The position numbers and the translations under genes are program-made. The notes beneath the pieces were generated by a model. That model worked only from the letters and a program-made list of their open reading frames with translations, did not search any database and was not told where the DNA came from. This document shows, one piece after another, positions 9,665 through 22,731 of a stretch of 36,562 nt of DNA; position 1 is the stretch's first letter, and each line of letters starts with the position of its first letter. This DNA is from a virus. The stretch is taken from positions 1-36,562 of IMG/VR virus record IMGVR_UViG_3300040770_000423. One strand, 5' to 3'.

Positions 9665-10306
9665 TTAAAATTTATTTATTGTTACTGAATCTTTTATTAT
9701 CTGAAGCGTATTTTCGTTAACTGCATAACCTATTATCTTGGTAAAATTAAATTCACTATCATTTGATAAAACCAAGGTTCCGGCGGTTCCGGCTAAATAA
9801 TGAGCATTTGCAACCAAACCCCAACCAAGAAGACTAATTTCGCCTATCTGAATAACTTCAACGTTTCCGCCTATTAAAGCGCTTGTTCTACTGAAACCAA
9901 CGAAGGCGAACTTGTGCAAATCATTTGAAGCGTCTAATTTATAAGCCAAGCCGTCAAAAATAGCTATTGGCGTATGACTGTTTAAAGGTTCGCCAGCTGT
10001 TTTGTAAATTATTCCGCCTTGAATACCTTGAACGCCCTGAAGACCACGAACGCCCATTTCGGCGACTTCAATATTAACGGTTTCAAAGGTTTCAGCGACT
10101 TCAATATTAACGCTTTCGTTTACTTCTGTTAAATTAACTACAAGCGTTTCATTTACTTCGGTTACTTCAATATTAACGCTTTCGTTTATTTCGGTTAATT
10201 CAATTTTAACAGCTTCAGTAAGTTCAGCAACCGTTATTTCGACCGGATAAACACCTTGCTGAAAGCTTAAATTTACGTTCGAAATAATTTCTGTTACTAC
10301 AATCAT
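9665..10306 (-). CDS. Fibre-like protein: acidic tandem repeats, a short collagen-like G-X-Y run, then a globular C-terminal domain
   Basis: 213 aa; repeats of the VNIEV(T/A)E type at aa 22-82; GVRGLQGVQGIQGG at aa 85-98. Confidence 0.5.
   Translation of the reverse strand: MIVVTEIISNVNLSFQQGVYPVEITVAELTEAVKIELTEINESVNIEVTEVNETLVVNLTEVNESVNIEVAETFETVNIEVAEMGVRGLQGVQGIQGGIIYKTAGEPLNSHTPIAIFDGLAYKLDASNDLHKFAFVGFSRTSALIGGNVEVIQIGEISLLGWGLVANAHYLAGTAGTLVLSNDSEFNFTKIIGYAVNENTLQIIKDSVTINKF
10061..10243 (-). repeat. In-frame imperfect tandem repeats (66-bp period) encoding the acidic VNESVNIEV repeats
   Basis: acttcaatattaacg occurs three times (from about 10066, 10098 and 10164). The copies starting at 10098 and 10164 share 29 nt with one mismatch. 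Confidence 0.8.
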
Positions 10307-10661: not shown

Positions 10662-10696
10662 TAAAAAAAAAGCGCCCTAAATTAATAAGGCGCTTG
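10662..10696 (-). terminator. Rho-independent terminator
   Basis: On the minus strand: AAGCGCC, a 12-nt loop, GGCGCTT, then a T9 run. Confidence 0.7.
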
Positions 10697-10709
10697 AATT
10701 TAAAATAGT

Positions 10710-11069
10710 TTACGCGTTTTTTGTCGCGTTTTTCAAAAGTTCAATTTCTTCGGCTTTTTTCTTGGCCTTATAAGCTTTGTCTGTTTCGGCCTTTTTAGCC
10801 TTAGCTTCAGCAATCTTTTCGTTTTCTTCGTCTGTTGGTTCCGCCTTGGTCACAGCCTTAGAAATTCGCATTTCGTAAACTTCACCAACAACAAAAACTT
10901 CTTCTTGTTCTTCGCCAAGGTCAACTTCTTCAGTAAAAGCGGCAACCCTGAACCCGTCCTTAAGTTTGTCAACGTTTACTTCGTCGGCTGGAACAAATGA
11001 AGCTATATATTTGCCAGCTTCTAAATGGTCGACGTTAGTACAAACGACATTAAATTTTGTCTTTTTCAT
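10710..11069 (-). CDS. Hypothetical protein with an acidic core and a Lys/Ala-rich tail (119 aa)
   Basis: The ORF-track start at 11102 is a TTG. I prefer the ATG at 11069 (MKKTKFNVV...), which places a -7 box 30 nt upstream. Confidence 0.6.
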   Translation of the reverse strand: MKKTKFNVVCTNVDHLEAGKYIASFVPADEVNVDKLKDGFRVAAFTEEVDLGEEQEEVFVVGEVYEMRISKAVTKAEPTDEENEKIAEAKAKKAETDKAYKAKKKAEEIELLKNATKNA

Positions 11070-12676: not shown

Positions 12677-13217
12677 AATCTATCGTTTCAATGTCGCCGC
12701 CAATATAAAATTCAGTCTTGGTTTTTACCGTGTTTTCAATCTTTTCTTCAGCGTTCCAGCCTAAATTTTTAAGCGCAAAAACCGCCCCTTGCGGAAAAGC
12801 TTCCTGAAGCTGAAGTTCGTAATTCATTTCTATCAAAGCGCGCGCCTTCTTGATAGTGTGAATAAATTCAGGATTTTCTTCGTAAGAATAAAAGCTTCTT
12901 CTGTCTGAAAAACCACAAAAAAGGACAAGGCCTGTAATAGTAAGTTTAACCTTATTTTCGTAACAATAAATAAAATAAGCGGTTATTTCTGTTTCAATTT
13001 CTTCAGCTGTTGAATAAAGCCTTGGCCGTCCGACAGGGTTCTTTGAAAAAATCAATTCAATAAAATCTTTTTGTTTATCGACGACCGACTTTTTAACAGC
13101 TGGATTTTTTTCTTCACTCGTTTTATCTTCTATTGAAAAAGGTATTAAAGAAGAATCACGAACGGCCAAGCGTTCGGCCTTCGTTATTTCAGTTTTCGTT
13201 TTTCTTGGCTGCTTCAT
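12660..13217 (-). CDS. terS: Terminase small subunit
   Basis: 185 aa; GRPRLYSTAEEIETEITAYFIYC...TITGLVLFCGF is typical of phage small terminase DNA-binding domains; directly upstream of terL. Confidence 0.7.
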   Translation of the reverse strand: MKQPRKTKTEITKAERLAVRDSSLIPFSIEDKTSEEKNPAVKKSVVDKQKDFIELIFSKNPVGRPRLYSTAEEIETEITAYFIYCYENKVKLTITGLVLFCGFSDRRSFYSYEENPEFIHTIKKARALIEMNYELQLQEAFPQGAVFALKNLGWNAEEKIENTVKTKTEFYIGGDIETIDYDETE

Positions 13218-13888
13218 TATTGTAAAATATTTATTTCTTTAGAACCATTATAAAAAACTTCAGAAGGGTTTTCAAGGCTTTTTTTGTAAAAAGCTAAAAA
13301 ATCAGGCGTAAATAAAATTTCAAACCCTTGAAGACTATCGAACCCTTCATTTATAAATTCTATTACAAAACCTTTAAATTTTTCAAAGTTTTCAGGCGAA
13401 ACTATTTCGTCTATTTTTTGAACAGTTCCTTCTTCAAGGTTATAAAGATAATTAAAAACGCCGTTCCTGTATTCGAATTCGGTTCGTTTTAGACCTCTTT
13501 TATAAATTGGCGACTTATCTTCTATTATTGCATAAATAAGGTCTTGAAACTCTTTTAATGACCTGAATACAAAAACCCGAAAACCGTGTTCGTGTAAAAT
13601 AGTATGAATGTTTTTTTGGTTTTCCTGTAGTGTTCCGGTTGGCGTCTTACATTCCAAGAAAAACGTCCTTTTCCAAAAATGAAATTCTAAGTCCGGTATT
13701 CCTGAAACTACGCCCATAGCTTTTAACTTGTTTCCGCGCGCGCCCGACATTTGACCACCGTTCGGAACGTGATACATTAAACCGCGTAAATTTGGAAAAG
13801 TATTATGAAACCATTGAAAAGCGTCGGCTTGAATTCTTTCTTCCTTCTGTTGAACCGTTTCGGCTGTTTTATCTGTTGAATTTTGCAT
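13217..13888 (-). CDS. VRR-NUC domain nuclease with a C-terminal extension
   Basis: GIPDLEF....FFLECKTPTGTLQENQ matches the VRR-NUC PD-(D/E)xK core. Confidence 0.7.
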   Translation of the reverse strand: MQNSTDKTAETVQQKEERIQADAFQWFHNTFPNLRGLMYHVPNGGQMSGARGNKLKAMGVVSGIPDLEFHFWKRTFFLECKTPTGTLQENQKNIHTILHEHGFRVFVFRSLKEFQDLIYAIIEDKSPIYKRGLKRTEFEYRNGVFNYLYNLEEGTVQKIDEIVSPENFEKFKGFVIEFINEGFDSLQGFEILFTPDFLAFYKKSLENPSEVFYNGSKEINILQ

Positions 13889-13920
13889 TTTTTGAATTTT
13901 TAATTTATTATTTTTTCGTT

Positions 13921-14195
13921 TGGAACATTAGGAACATCATTGGAACATTAGAAAAAAACTTAATGTTCCAGCGTGAACCCCTTTATTAATAAGCCTTTAG
14001 AACAAGTGGAACAATAGGAACATTGAATTATCAACATTTAGTATATATTATATATTAGTAATTATCACTATACTTTCAAAGTGTTCGAATTTCAATGTTC
14101 CTATTGTTCCACTTCACGCGAAACCGCGCCAACAAAGGCCGGACGCTGGAACATTGACTTTTTTATTAATGTTCCACTTTTAAACTGTTGTTCCA
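13921..14195. promoter_or_regulatory. Array of 11 copies of (T/A)GGAACA(T/A)T in both orientations; candidate replication origin or operator cluster
   Basis: Forward copies start at 13921, 13930, 13941, 14007, 14016 and 14147. Reverse copies are at 13962..13970, 14094..14102, 14103..14111, 14168..14176 and 14188..14195. This is the only long non-coding gap (310 bp). Confidence 0.6.
14004..14114. repeat. 24-bp perfect inverted repeat flanking a 63-bp AT-rich spacer
   Basis: aagtggaacaataggaacattgaa (14004..14027) is the exact reverse complement of 14091..14114. By hand count the spacer 14028..14090 is about 81 percent A+T. Confidence 0.9.
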
Positions 14196-14198
14196 TTT

Positions 14199-15698
14199 TT
14201 AAAATTTAAAAGCTTTTTGTTCCGGTTCCTTTTGTTCCGGTTTTTGGTATTTTGCCGGTTCTTCGCCATTAATATAAGCCGAAGTTGTTCTTAAGTTTAC
14301 ATAATAGCCGCGCGTTTTGTGTCCGTTAATTCGCTGAATACCGGCTAAAAAACCGAGTTGAGCCATTGACTTGCCAACGAAGCGCGAATTAAGCGGCTTA
14401 CCGTTGAATTTTTCCGATAGCGTCGAAATAATGTCAGGCAAAGAATAAAACTGTCCTGTCGCGTCTGTTATTTCGAAACATTGCTTTATTAGGTCTTTTT
14501 CAAGGTCTGAAATTTCGAAGCCTTTGTTCGCCAAGTCGCGCGACTTCATTTCTTCGCTGGTTAACTGCTGGTTATAGTCGTCGGAGTGATAAAGCGCGTA
14601 AGCTTGCGCCCAAACGGCGTGAATGTCTACTTCGGTTTTATAGTTCCAATTTATGTCTTCAACGTTAACGCATAACCAGCGCGTATTTTCTGTATCTGTC
14701 AGAAATTCGTTCTTGTTAGTAGACCCGAAGAAGTTCGTTCTTCTTGGCTGTTCTTCAGCGTCCACGGCGTAAGCTTTTCGTTCTTTTATCGTGGTCATTG
14801 AAATAATAGATTTCAAATGATTTACTTCAATATTCGAAAGCGACGCTAGTTCTTCAAGGTTATAAATAAAATTTTCTGAAAAACTAAAATACGTGTCTTT
14901 GTTGTCGCGAATTGGCGCTTCAGTATAATACTTAGTTCCGAACGGGTTCAGGAAACGAATGAAGGTCGATTTTCCTTTTTCTTGCTTCTCGCCCACCAAG
15001 ACATAAACGAAACGATTTTCGACGCCGTAAAGCGCGCAACCTACACAGCGAACCAGCATTTTTCTAAATTGCGAAACGTGAAAATCTTGGTCTGTAGTTT
15101 TTACAAAATTTGCTAGTTTCCCAATATGGTCGACGTCACGGTTCCAAGTTGGCAGCTTTTCAAAATAATCGATAAAAGGGTTGTAAGTTTCTACAAAGTC
15201 GGAACGAAGCAAAGACTTAAGTTTATCAATAGAAAAAGAAAAACGAACGTGCTGAAGCTTGCGAAAAAGGCTGTCAGGGTTTAAACTAACAAATTCGCCT
15301 TCGTTGTTTTTTTGTCTGTATTCGCTTCTTTGCGTTACTTCGTTTCTGACAAAATCCCAATTTTTACGAAGAAAATTTTCTACTTTGTAAATTTCCGGCT
15401 TGTCGTCAATTCCGAAGTCGTCTTTGTTCTGCTGAAATACCTTAACAAAAACCGCTTTCACTTTTTCATAACTCAAATAAAAGCGTTCGCATTGATGTTT
15501 TATGTCAGTATCGTTCCACTCGCGGCCGGCTTTATTAACCGCATGAACGAACGAATAAATTTCGCGCCAAGCTGTTTTTTCTTGGTCATTTCTTGCTTCT
15601 TGTACTTCAGGCGTTTCGTCGAATTCAACATATTTTTTTTCAATTATAAAGTCGTCTTTTATAAACATATCGCTGTTTATGTTTTCTTTTTGCTCCAT
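14199..15698 (-). CDS. VirE-family / D5-like P-loop NTPase (replicative helicase partner of the primase)
   Basis: 499 aa; Walker A GEKQEKGKST; Walker B-like region FIYNLEEL; layout typical of virulence-associated protein E-type phage primase-helicases. Confidence 0.75.
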   Translation of the reverse strand: MEQKENINSDMFIKDDFIIEKKYVEFDETPEVQEARNDQEKTAWREIYSFVHAVNKAGREWNDTDIKHQCERFYLSYEKVKAVFVKVFQQNKDDFGIDDKPEIYKVENFLRKNWDFVRNEVTQRSEYRQKNNEGEFVSLNPDSLFRKLQHVRFSFSIDKLKSLLRSDFVETYNPFIDYFEKLPTWNRDVDHIGKLANFVKTTDQDFHVSQFRKMLVRCVGCALYGVENRFVYVLVGEKQEKGKSTFIRFLNPFGTKYYTEAPIRDNKDTYFSFSENFIYNLEELASLSNIEVNHLKSIISMTTIKERKAYAVDAEEQPRRTNFFGSTNKNEFLTDTENTRWLCVNVEDINWNYKTEVDIHAVWAQAYALYHSDDYNQQLTSEEMKSRDLANKGFEISDLEKDLIKQCFEITDATGQFYSLPDIISTLSEKFNGKPLNSRFVGKSMAQLGFLAGIQRINGHKTRGYYVNLRTTSAYINGEEPAKYQKPEQKEPEQKAFKF

Positions 15699-16585
15699 TA
15701 AGTAAGTGTTAATTGTGCTAACATTCCAGCCTGAACGGCTGTTTTAGCTGTTTTTTGATAGCCTGAAATTCCTTTTGAAAGATAGGAATTATTATTTATC
15801 AAACTGTTAATAAAATCAATAGCTTCACTCTGTTCTACGTAACCGCTTGCGACATAACCTCCTAGAGTAACGCCGGCGCTCCTTACTTGTGGATGACCGT
15901 CCGAAACAATAGACGCGAAAAGGTTTATTATTATATTTTGAACGCGCGCTTTATCGCCTTGGCCTATAACCACCGGAACAGACGGAACCGCTGAAGCGAC
16001 AAAAGCGTTTATCATTTTTCCGCGTTTCGTCCAAGTTTCCGCTTCAGGCCTGTATAACAAATCGGGGTCGTACGACAAAAATAAAGGTAAAATTGCGTTT
16101 TGTCCTGTTCCGTCGAAACCTTTGAATTTTTCCATTTCAATACCTAAGCCGTAAAAATACGACTTGAATTCGTCGACTGTATTAACAACCGGAATTTTAA
16201 CCAAAAACTTAACGCCTTTTTTTGAAGGCGAAAGCCAACCAGCAACAACTGAAGGAAAAGTTTCGAAAATGTATTTTTTGAATTGCGTCGCGTTTTCAAT
16301 GTGGTCAAAGTCCAAAACAAGAAGTCCGGTAAACTTTATAATGTTAATATAGCCGCGGCCTTGGCCGTCAGTATAGACGCAAGGCGTAAAATAAAAAAGG
16401 TTTTCTTGCTTTAGTGTCGCCTTAAGTTTTGCGTCGCCTTCAGCTTCAGCTTTTGCTATTTTAGCAAAAACGGCTTTAATTTCGTCATTCGGGTTTTTGT
16501 TCGCGTTAAGAAATTCCTGAAGCGTAACTTCGCCGATTGGTTTTTTTGAATTTACGCGCGCTGGGTAGAATTGAAAAGTTATCAT
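15698..16585 (-). CDS. Primase-like protein (BT4734 / VirE N-terminal-like, AEP fold)
   Basis: TGLLVLDFDHIE...WLSPSKKGVKFLVKIP resembles the VirE_N primase motif. The track start at 16654 is a TTG; I prefer the ATG at 16585 (MITFQFYP...). A TACTTTTG -7 box lies at 16642..16649. Confidence 0.6.
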   Translation of the reverse strand: MITFQFYPARVNSKKPIGEVTLQEFLNANKNPNDEIKAVFAKIAKAEAEGDAKLKATLKQENLFYFTPCVYTDGQGRGYINIIKFTGLLVLDFDHIENATQFKKYIFETFPSVVAGWLSPSKKGVKFLVKIPVVNTVDEFKSYFYGLGIEMEKFKGFDGTGQNAILPLFLSYDPDLLYRPEAETWTKRGKMINAFVASAVPSVPVVIGQGDKARVQNIIINLFASIVSDGHPQVRSAGVTLGGYVASGYVEQSEAIDFINSLINNNSYLSKGISGYQKTAKTAVQAGMLAQLTLT

Positions 16586-16742
16586 ATAACGCGAATTATT
16601 AATTCTGTCAAAAGACAAACGCCGGCCAAAATTAAAGCCGACAAAAGTAAACAACCGATATAAGTTCTTATTTTGTCCGAAGTCGTTAATCCTGTTTTTA
16701 TTTTTTTTCCGTTAAAAATAAAATATTGGTTTTCTTTGTTTG

Positions 16743-21385: not shown

Positions 21386-21407
21386 ATAGTAGTTATTTTG
21401 TTGACTG

Positions 21408-21415
21408 CAAATATA
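21408..21415 (-). promoter_or_regulatory. -7 box TATATTTG(CA) for the minus-strand replication operon; lies within a 9-bp inverted repeat
   Basis: TAnnTTTG match 23 nt upstream of the ATG at 21385. The inverted repeat is tgcaaatat (21406..21414) / atatttgca (21424..21432). Confidence 0.5.
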
Positions 21416-21461
21416 AGTAAAAAATATTTGCAAAAAAATTTTAATATATCAAAAACATTTA

Positions 21462-21469
21462 TATCTTTG
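21462..21469 (+). promoter_or_regulatory. -7 box TATCTTTG(CA) for the plus-strand early operon
   Basis: TAnnTTTG match 32 nt upstream of the ATG at 21501. Confidence 0.5.
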
Positions 21470-21500
21470 CACCATACAACAACAAAAAAACACCTTTAAA

Positions 21501-21764
21501 ATGCCTAAAAATAACGCTAAAGTCAATAAAATAGAACAAAGTACTATAAAAGAAGTAAACCAAAATTTTGTAATTCGTTACAAATTTGACGGCGATAAAA
21601 AAACTTCTTTAATTGGCGCCGGAAAATATGCGGTTCTTTTGGAAAATTCAAAAGACCCTATTGAAATGGCAATTCGTCATTTTGAACGCGCTTTAAATTC
21701 CGCTGAAGTCAAAACGATTATACGCTTGCGCGGTGGTCTTACTGTAAATTTTTGCTCGAAATAA
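21501..21764 (+). CDS. Hypothetical early protein
   Basis: 87-aa ORF with ATG start; first gene after the divergent promoter region. Confidence 0.5.
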   Translation: MPKNNAKVNKIEQSTIKEVNQNFVIRYKFDGDKKTSLIGAGKYAVLLENSKDPIEMAIRHFERALNSAEVKTIIRLRGGLTVNFCSK

Positions 21765-21778
21765 TTAAATAAAAAAAA

Positions 21779-22033
21779 ATGAAGAAAATTAAAAAACCAA
21801 CGGCCGAAGAAAAAAAACGCGTTCCGGTCGACGACAGTTTAAAAATACGCGTTATAAATGCGAAGGCGCTTTTGCCAAAAAGCGGAATAACTTCGCTTTT
21901 AGTGTTTCAGTTTCCTGAATTAGATACGATAAAAAAGCGTTCATTAATGGCTAATGTTTTGCAACTTAGAACGACAAACGCCGGAATCACTGAAAAACTT
22001 GAAGCGCTTGTTTTAACCTTAAAATCTGAATAA
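21779..22033 (+). CDS. Hypothetical early protein (basic)
   Basis: 84-aa ORF with ATG start. Confidence 0.5.
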   Translation: MKKIKKPTAEEKKRVPVDDSLKIRVINAKALLPKSGITSLLVFQFPELDTIKKRSLMANVLQLRTTNAGITEKLEALVLTLKSE

Positions 22034-22062
22034 TAAAAAATTAACAATTAAATACAAAAATT

Positions 22063-22731
22063 ATGTCAACAAATTCTTTTATTCCTGAAGGCTACGCGCA
22101 ACCAACCAGCGCCGGCGGTTTTACAAAATTAGAAACAGGCGAAAACAAGCTTCGAATTCTGTCTTCTCCTTTACTAATGTGGTTAGAATGGCGCGACGGT
22201 AAGCCAACCCGTCACTTATACGTTCAAGGCCAGCCAGCACCAGCGAAAGGCGCCGGTCAAAAAGACAGCGTAAAACATTCGTGGGCGGTTATAATTTGGA
22301 ACTATAAGACCGAAAAAATTGAGGTTTTTGAATTAGACAAAGCCGGCGTAATAGCTTCAATCTTGGCTTTATCTGAAAAGCCTTCTTGGGGGCATCCTAA
22401 AAACTTTGATTTGATTATTACGAAAAAAGGTTCAGGAATGGAAACTGAATATGTAACTACGCCGGAACCACCAAGCGAACCTTCGAACGCTATAGTCGAA
22501 GCTTACACCGAAAACCCTGTTGACCTTCGTCAACTTCTTGTCGAAGGCGGAAATCCGTTTATAGGAAAAGCCAGCGCTGGAAATCCAGCAAACCCAAACG
22601 CAACACCAGCACAAAGCAACGCGAAAGTCGTGACTGCTGAAAATTGGGTTCAAGGCGACGAAATTCCGGCCGGCTTTATAATAAACCCTATTGACGGCGT
22701 AGGAATTGTAAAAAAAGACCTTCCTTTCTAA
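22063..22731 (+). CDS. Putative single-stranded DNA-binding protein
   Basis: 222 aa: a globular N-terminal ~140 aa, a Pro/Ala/Asn-rich low-complexity linker, and a C-terminus ending DLPF, reminiscent of the bacterial SSB tip DDDIPF. It sits next to the ATPase gene. Confidence 0.4.
   Translation: MSTNSFIPEGYAQPTSAGGFTKLETGENKLRILSSPLLMWLEWRDGKPTRHLYVQGQPAPAKGAGQKDSVKHSWAVIIWNYKTEKIEVFELDKAGVIASILALSEKPSWGHPKNFDLIITKKGSGMETEYVTTPEPPSEPSNAIVEAYTENPVDLRQLLVEGGNPFIGKASAGNPANPNATPAQSNAKVVTAENWVQGDEIPAGFIINPIDGVGIVKKDLPF

Follow-up and report, generated by a model that had tools for sequence, protein, structure and literature searches.

What is the function of a dense array of short repeats lying in the only large non-coding gap of a phage genome? 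The question is raised by the virus record IMGVR_UViG_3300040770_000423 (36,562 nucleotides; "the window" below is this whole stretch, positions 1 to 36,562), in which the gap at 13889-14198 is filled with copies of a word built around GGAACA. The array follows the 3' end of a gene for a VapE-family helicase and precedes the packaging genes, so that an origin of replication, an operator platform, a packaging recognition site, an RNA-level element and a non-functional repeat all have to be considered. The computational evidence favours the first of these: with a probability of roughly 0.8, the gap is the phage's origin of replication and the third part of a pri-rep-ori module of the type known from staphylococcal pathogenicity islands (SaPIs) and other phage-inducible chromosomal islands (PICIs). 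An iteron origin beside the primase and helicase genes had also been the first choice of an earlier, sequence-only reading of this DNA, and it is now supported by comparative and structural evidence, above all the homology of the helicase to Rep1 of SaPI1 and the recurrence of arrays after VapE genes. The parts of the array are as follows.

13921-14195, no strand assigned: whole iteron array and proposed ori, with 11 GGAACA words in two mirror-image half-origins; it begins 4 bp past the VapE stop codon (14199-14201).
13921-13949, plus strand: left outer iterons TGGAACATT (13921), AGGAACATC (13930) and TGGAACATT (13941).
13962-13970, minus strand: iteron TGGAACATT, head-to-head with the iteron at 13941 (pair 13941-13970).
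14004-14027, plus strand: left arm of the 24-bp inverted repeat, with the inner tandem iterons TGGAACAAT (14007) and AGGAACATT (14016) pointing to the core.
14028-14090, no strand assigned: iteron-free core of 63 bp, 81% A+T, the proposed DNA-unwinding (melting) element.
14091-14114, minus strand: right arm of the 24-bp inverted repeat, with the inner tandem iterons AGGAACATT (14094-14102) and TGGAACAAT (14103-14111).
14147-14176, no strand assigned: right head-to-head pair TGGAACATT-N12-AATGTTCCA, the mirror of the pair 13941-13970.
14187-14195, minus strand: outermost right iteron TGGAACAAC, 4 bp past the VapE stop codon.
14218-14238, minus strand: three more GGAAC cores, two of them GGAACA, in the last 40 nt of the helicase open reading frame (ORF), where they encode the tail KPEQKEPEQK.

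The gap, taken as the sole large non-coding one in the sequence-only reading, is with 310 bp indeed the largest stretch of the ORF list that lacks a coding-strand ORF. Eleven copies of (T/A)GGAACA(T/A)T had been claimed for it. Eleven GGAACA cores are present within 273 bp, at 13922, 13931, 13942, 14008, 14017 and 14148 on the plus strand and at 13964, 14096, 14105, 14170 and 14189 on the minus strand, but the strict form WGGAACAWT is kept by only nine of them, the copies AGGAACATC at 13930 and TGGAACAAC at 14187-14195 (minus strand) each being one flanking base off. The strict form occurs 10 times in the window (nine of these in the gap) against 1.15 expected, and none of 100 shuffles reaches 10. 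GGAACA by itself is mildly over-represented over the genome (47 found, 12.4 expected), with about 40 per kb in the array and about 0.9 per kb elsewhere; a genome-wide count thus finds a similar density at no other place. The three direct copies at 13921, 13930 and 13941 (spacings of 9 and 11 bp), the two palindromic sites (13941-13950 with 13961-13970 around N10, and 14147-14155 with 14168-14176 around N12), the perfect 24-bp inverted repeat (14004-14027 with 14091-14114) and the 63-bp spacer at 14028-14090 (81.0% A+T) were all found exactly as first described.

A property that the sequence-only reading had missed is the mirror symmetry of the whole array, in spacing and in orientation, about a point near 14059. 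The core-to-core distances are 9, 11, 23, 43 and 9 bp on the left, 80 bp across the centre, and 9, 42, 23 and 19 bp on the right, and the orientations, viewed on the plus strand, run + + + - + + to the left and - - + - - to the right. Six iterons therefore lie to the left of the core and five to the right, with the inner tandem pairs converging on it. The 24-bp inverted repeat extends to 45 nt at 80% complementarity, and a second, nested inverted repeat pairs 13941-13974 with 14143-14176 (34 nt, 88% complementary). Within the core the richest 40-bp A+T window is 14026-14065 (90%). The 3' end of the helicase gene, where the three additional GGAAC cores are found, may also be part of the origin; the tail that they encode has a predicted local distance difference test score (pLDDT) below 50 in the AlphaFold2 (AF2) model, and in the related loci L060-L064 the array likewise starts 127 bp before the stop codon.

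Conservation among close relatives singles out the iterons. Nine phages that share the GGAAC word, with VapE identities of 67-85%, were used as a footprint set, in which 40 of 55 iteron-core columns are invariant as against 20 of the 255 other columns of the gap. In all nine relatives, eight of the 11 iterons keep their place: the core at 13922, the iteron at 13962-13970, both cores in 14004-14027, both in 14091-14114, the core at 14148 and the iteron at 14187-14195. The others are kept less well, the core at 13942 in five of the nine, that at 13931 in three and the minus-strand core within 14168-14176 in five. Short words conserved in a diverged background are the signature of protein-binding sites in DNA. 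Related phages also carry repeat arrays at the same position, the lack of which had been named beforehand as an argument against an origin. The homologous gap of Flavobacterium phage vB_FspM_pippi8-1 (MN812205; host Flavobacterium sp. LMO8), at 10689-10986, contains the same GGAAC words, that of phage FPSV-S1 has the same layout with the word GGTTACAC, and the array of Cellulophaga phage phi17:1 is built from CTGGTCAC.

The same arrangement recurs far beyond these relatives. For 76 VapE loci from viral contigs and bacterial genomes (a partly redundant set, as with L060-L064), the densest cluster of any 7-mer was located, and clusters of at least five copies were counted as arrays; 90 shuffled controls never rose above four. 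Such a cluster is present in 59 of the 76 loci, and in 44 of these 59 its start falls within -200 to +350 bp of the VapE stop codon. This interval makes up about 8-9% of each locus, so that position by itself would lead one to expect about five. The 44 loci span 28-85% protein identity and several phyla. The repeated word is specific to each lineage: besides GGAACA, GGTTACAC and CTGGTCAC it takes the forms GGTTACATTA, GGTAACAG, GGCAACC, GGGTACC, GGTTGTA, GTAGTCA, TACTACA and CGAGTAA, among others, and the distance between iteron words follows the distance between VapE proteins (Mantel r = 0.60, 40 loci). Architecture was compared over 45 non-redundant arrays. The most AT-rich 40-bp window falls in the central third in 32 of them, in 42 the A+T content of the longest stretch without iterons (typically 50-100 bp) exceeds that of the locus, and orientation usually flips across this stretch, some arrays such as that of L039 being all-direct.

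VapE homologues are found in 339 phage records, four of which were examined for arrays. In two true phages of Bacillota, whose VapE proteins are fusions of 775-815 aa, the array lies directly after the VapE stop codon: Staphylococcus phage 47 (L090 3579-3878) has 5-6 copies of TGATGCAACA and Paenibacillus phage AJG77 (L093 3528-3696) 10 copies of ACTGCAACA. Flavobacterium phage mumin6-4 (L092, MN812223) carries eight AGGTAAC copies at 4306-4571, and two more remain at the VapE stop codon. Bacteroides phage SJC15 (L091) has a 296-bp gap after VapE but no array in it. The VapE-iteron module thus appears to be widespread in true phages. A T5orf172/MUG113 nuclease gene stands in mumin6-4 at 3748-4311, between the VapE stop codon and the main array, and looks like a homing-endonuclease-type insertion that has parted rep from its origin.

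The genes that border the gap of the window are the following.

14199-15698, minus strand: rep, a VapE-family superfamily 3 (SF3) helicase of 499 aa with a P-loop (Pfam PF05272, VapE-like_dom, 3.5e-33); proposed self-loading initiator-helicase.
14292-14504, minus strand: predicted winged-helix domain of this helicase (residues 399-469, H-S-H-H-S-S, AF2 models); proposed iteron reader.
15698-16654, minus strand: pri, a BT4734-like (VirE_N) protein of 318 aa from a family of archaeo-eukaryotic primase (AEP) type (Pfam PF08800, BT4734-like_N, 3.6e-10); it abuts rep and precedes it in transcription.
13217-13888, minus strand: VRR-NUC nuclease gene on the downstream side of the gap, followed by the small and then the large terminase gene (terS, terL).

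The helicase is linked to a known initiator by two kinds of comparison. A profile of 60 helicase sequences matched a single entry among the PDB sequences, 7pds_A ("Similar to D. nodosus vapE", E 2.1e-12), which is Rep1 of SaPI1 (PMC9371898). An AF2 model of the window's protein (mean pLDDT 76.5) found the same structure as its best Foldseek match among 350,542 chains, with E 4.6e-15 over 422 aligned columns, followed by the primase-helicases of NrS-1, African swine fever virus and monkeypox virus (E5) and by PriRep5 of SaPI5; identity to Rep1 in the structural alignment is only about 14%. The H-S-H-H-S-S topology of the C-terminal domain was obtained in two independent AF2 runs, one of the full-length protein and one of the domain alone, with pLDDT values of 70-88; the predicted unit includes a helix at residues 438-447 and a wing at 451-469. 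The top Foldseek matches of this domain are nearly all winged-helix DNA binders, namely PerR/Fur, RFX5 (template-modelling score 0.69 on the target), SSV1 F-93, Cdt1 and ORC/Cdc6. By homology to the SaPI Rep proteins (PMC9371898), the predicted winged helix of the adjacent helicase would be the best candidate for the iteron binder. The BT4734-like family of the neighbouring gene has been placed in the AEP superfamily (PMC5862659), and a sequence search of the pri protein against PDB sequences gave no meaningful match. In many relatives the primase is fused to the helicase (forms of 720-800 aa).

The Rep proteins of SaPIs are SF3 (Rep1, PriRep5) or SF6 (Rep2) helicases whose C-terminal winged-helix domain reads penta- or hexanucleotide iterons, and the SaPI origin consists of 6-12 iterons immediately 3' of the rep ORF, AT-rich near its centre and with at least two opposed iterons on each side (PMC9371898). 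The gap of the window has every sequence-level feature of such an origin: it lies 3' of rep, holds 11 short iterons in opposed sets around an AT-rich core and is accompanied by a primase gene. The likeness to SaPI1 covers the VapE-family SF3 Rep, the primase gene just upstream, the ori 3' of rep and the opposed iterons with AT-rich DNA in their middle. SaPI1 has its primase as a separate protein and SaPI5 as part of a fusion (PMC9371898), the first state being that of the window and the second that of many of its relatives. In contrast to SaPIs, which are satellite islands of Bacillota, the window is a complete 36.5-kb tailed phage of Bacteroidota; compared with SaPI1, its primase belongs to the BT4734-like AEP family and its array forms a nearly perfect nested palindrome, two head-to-head iteron pairs being part of it. 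PICIs of Gram-negative bacteria share the origin layout of SaPIs, and for one of them, EcCICFT073, pri-ori plasmid constructs and their deletion derivatives have been assayed for plasmid maintenance (PMC6092414). There the pri-rep-ori module sits in islands, whereas here it is found in true phages and in islands of Bacteroidota. The window itself was rejected as a PICI, being a complete phage genome with a full virion module and no integrase among the ORFs scanned.

Other replicons with short or long iterons resemble the array less closely. The alpha protein of satellite phage P4 is a primase-helicase with a C-terminal winged-helix origin-binding domain and short (octamer) iterons, its primase being of the DnaG/toprim type and fused to the helicase. 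P4 requires two separated iteron regions, ori and crr, whereas the genome of the window has no second GGAACA cluster. In the core origins of SV40 and papillomaviruses, an SF3 helicase (large T antigen or E1) initiates by itself at inverted sets of GAGGC pentamers next to an AT-rich tract, on which two hexamers form. This is a functional analogy, as their origin-binding domain is N-terminal and of another fold and their hosts are eukaryotic, and no homology is implied beyond the ATPase core. Iteron plasmids (RepA, pi, RepE) and the O-ori system of lambda have direct repeats of 17-22 bp, a WH1-WH2 or O-type initiator that recruits the host DnaB and usually DnaA boxes. They share with the window initiator-binding repeats beside an AT-rich unwinding element. 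This type of origin was nevertheless rejected for the window, where the words measure 6-9 bp and stand in inverted sets, the helicase would itself act as the initiator and DnaA boxes are no more frequent than expected. A host DnaA-dependent origin was rejected as well: TTATNCACA with at most one mismatch occurs 33 times against 31.9 expected, and the gap has a single one-mismatch site.

Following the SaPI/PICI precedent, a mechanism can be proposed for the window. Helicase subunits would recognise the GGAACA iterons through the C-terminal winged helix, the tandem words lying on one face of the DNA since they are 9-11 bp apart. One hexamer would assemble on each mirror-image half-origin, with its six or five iterons, and the two assemblies would distort and melt the 63-bp, 81% A+T core between them. 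The helicase would load itself, with no separate loader, and replication would start here, with the AEP primase from the preceding gene priming synthesis. Extension would presumably fall to a host polymerase, because no phage polymerase gene was seen among the window ORFs scanned (a scan that did not cover every ORF). The five or six iterons of each half-origin may match the six winged helices of one hexamer; if they do, two hexamers would load facing each other, which bears on a question left open for SaPIs (PMC9371898).

Several observations weigh against an origin at this site or against the proposed binder. Regions as AT-rich as the core are not rare, about 1.6% of 63-bp windows in 39 regions of this genome (62.6% A+T overall) being its equal; the A+T content is therefore unexceptional on its own, and what counts is its central place in the array. 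The cumulative GC skew falls steadily and has no turning point that would mark an origin, which makes it uninformative. Among the 76 VapE loci, 17 lack an array of at least five copies, in nine others the array lies 0.35-1.65 kb downstream of VapE, and in six the best cluster is upstream and looks like low-complexity sequence. The covariation of word and protein does not single out either domain, the partial Mantel r being 0.20 for the winged helix given the ATPase and 0.20 for the ATPase given the winged helix. The Foldseek search with the C-terminal domain returned no match at E <= 0.001 (best E 0.017), so the winged-helix assignment rests on its topology, on the consistency of the weak matches and on the likeness of the full-length protein to Rep1. 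Finally, in phages the array is nearly always also upstream of the VRR-NUC and terminase genes. Since it thus lies between the replication and packaging modules, its position alone cannot tell an origin from a packaging or late-control site.

Two rival explanations draw on this position. The sequence-only reading had offered a master operator for an early-to-late switch, that is, a platform from which a separate regulator would turn on the VRR-NUC, terminase and structural genes. VRR-NUC, terS and terL are the next genes downstream of the array, the palindromic sites are spaced as for dimeric repressors or activators, and sigma-70-type promoter-like hexamer pairs number 10 against 2.3 in shuffles. 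However, the promoter consensus of Bacteroidota differs from the sigma-70 type, and sigma-70-like matches are expected from an AT-rich core; the -7 box TAnnTTTG, present at other intergenic sites, does not occur on either strand of 13795-16075, and hence not in the gap. As the flanking genes are co-oriented, read-through from the helicase gene would need no promoter there. A separate regulator also lacks a candidate among the early proteins scanned: the products of 21501-22033, which had been suggested as binders, have no recognisable DNA-binding domain, and neither the products of 21501-22731 nor five other early proteins belong to a recognisable DNA-binding family, the helicase being the sole exception. 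Together with the arrays in elements that show no late genes in the flanks examined, described next, this makes an operator platform unlikely. The other explanation is a packaging site of pac or cos type, with repeats bound by the small terminase. In lambda the R sites of cosB sit upstream of Nu1, and the array is 0.7-1 kb upstream of terS in the window and in most phage relatives and directly upstream of a TerS homologue in L017-L019. Yet the distance between array and VapE is constant, at 0-50 bp, while that between array and terS varies from 0.2 to more than 2 kb (about 2 kb in phi17:1). In chromosomal loci of Bacteroidota the array comes right after VapE, beside a tyrosine integrase, an AbiE toxin-antitoxin pair, transposases or a DnaG-like primase, and no terminase or late genes were seen within about 3 kb downstream or among the ORFs scanned. 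L058, a mobilisable element, has the array after VapE and a MobA/VirD2 relaxase downstream, with no terminase gene in the flanks examined. In L059 the array has VapE on one side and an SNF2 helicase gene on the other, and the latter and a nuclease gene separate it from a TerS-like ORF. Conversely, VapE is missing from Nonlabens phage P12024S, and so is any large gap at this place, although VRR-NUC and terminase genes are present. It is VapE that the array accompanies and not the packaging genes, and a packaging site is accordingly a highly improbable explanation.

Two further explanations look to the palindromes. At the RNA level, the 24-bp stem or the whole 275-nt quasi-palindrome could serve as a site of termination, attenuation or RNase III processing between early and late genes. 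Any transcript that reads through inverted repeats of this length must be capable of hairpin formation, and cmscan matches models of long-hairpin precursors only. These Rfam matches are to plant microRNA families, at 28-51 bits against gathering scores of 89-249, and reflect generic hairpin potential; the coding strand of the gap yields no predicted intrinsic terminator; and what the relatives keep is short words in both orientations rather than stems, with varying spacers and arrangement, a pattern that points to proteins binding DNA and not to an RNA helix. An RNA-level role has, on these grounds, very little probability. The palindromic, AT-rich character of the array and its place in the sole large non-coding gap would also suit a miniature inverted-repeat remnant or slippage products in a tolerant gap, non-functional or selfish. 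Such a repeat would hardly account for cores that are invariant in nine phages whose spacers have diverged or for the equivalent position of the array in so many cluster-bearing loci, and the genome has no second copy of the element; this explanation is barely credible. The origin reading is thus the one retained.

The window is the complete, circularly assembled genome of a Flavobacterium phage, with 36,517 unique bases, with nearly all genes on the minus strand. An exact 45-bp direct repeat (bases 1-45 equal 36518-36562) is the assembly overlap, so that the termini of the window are uninformative on physical ends, pac or cos, either way. The segment 12000-17000 is 72% identical in nucleotides to pippi8-1, a cultured myovirus, and to the lotta8 phages (Winoviridae); the FPSV phages of F. 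psychrophilum and Cellulophaga phages phi17:1 and phi18:1 are more distant kin. The virion genes include those for the major head protein, protease, portal, terminase, tape-measure protein and an amidase (lysin), and no integrase, phage-inducible repressor or interference genes were seen among the ORFs scanned. A plus-strand ORF at 13792-13989 is probably spurious, as is pippi8-1 gp021 (QHB38585.1; L001 3299-3427), a 42-codon "hypothetical protein" annotated within the homologous iteron array, because both run through iterons. Elsewhere in the window, a 33-bp tandem repeat at 10100-10215 (3.5 copies, 75% match) lies inside the ORF 9665-10306. Bacteroidetes-type -7 boxes stand back to back at 21400-21470 (TATATTTG on the minus strand at 21408-21415, TATCTTTG on the plus strand at 21462-21469), in the gap between a divergent SNF2-type helicase gene and the 21501 gene, where no GGAACA cluster is found; they are probably early divergent promoters.

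Some of the other loci show variations of their own. The densest array seen is that of L059 (3740-4062), where a VapE fusion gene is followed by the palindromic word GGGTACC in about 18 copies. L017 has 16 tandem copies of AACAGCGGC at 5665-5896, about 1.4 kb downstream of VapE and apart from its gene-adjacent array of the GGTAACAG type; this tandem is probably a coding repeat. L012 (IMGVR_UViG_3300020045_009111), whose VapE is 60% identical, has no dense array right after VapE. At 4521-4949 it carries an ORF of 142 aa, the C-terminal end of which matches, with 55% identity over 29 aa (E 1e-7), residues 439-467 of the window's helicase, predicted to be the recognition-helix and wing segment, and at 4950-5354 a (TA)n-rich core flanked, as judged by eye, by about four AAGACAAT-like words. 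This may be an origin-binding domain copied into a protein of its own, together with a reduced origin. A small helix-turn-helix protein of the Bac_DnaA_C family is encoded a few genes downstream of the array in L036 (4901-5332, E 6e-14) and L060 (4289-4639, 4e-11) and seemingly, judged by eye, in L014 and L015; the window has no such gene. Compact units of integrase, small ORF, (primase-)VapE and iteron array occur on Bacteroidota chromosomal contigs (L072-L074, L075, L077, L082, L084, L089), in some cases followed by AbiE toxin-antitoxin genes, in a layout that resembles PICI-like or other small integrative elements.

The proposed origin belongs to a known type, the Rep-iteron origin of SaPIs and PICIs, carried here by a true phage. 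Its use lies in annotation rather than in the discovery of a novel class of system, and its interest is modest, since the result will not surprise a replication specialist. In the literature searched, no origin description was found for these Flavobacterium or Cellulophaga phages and no pairing of VapE with iterons, and the paper describing pippi8-1 mentions neither repeats nor an origin. Calling the gap the origin and the "virulence-associated protein E" gene an initiator-helicase mends a misleading gene name, and in pippi8-1 the origin annotation would drop the probably spurious 42-codon ORF. Genetic tools for Flavobacterium are few, and the pri-rep-ori cassette of about 2.8 kb (13880-16654) is a candidate for a minimal replicon in this genus. 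The lineage-specific words lend themselves directly to specificity swaps.

The layout is not confined to satellites, which weakens the idea that it is diagnostic of PICIs and suggests a common stock of VapE replicons on which satellites and phages alike draw. A broader reading, for which the odds are about even, is that the VapE replicon is shared by true tailed phages (Winoviridae, Cellulophaga Helsingorvirus, Flavobacterium Muminvirus, Staphylococcus Triavirus phage 47 and Paenibacillus phage AJG77) and by integrative and mobilisable elements of Bacteroidota, the iteron word changing along with VapE. If this is true, the more than 40 pairs of helicase and word would form a natural data set on how the winged helix reads DNA.

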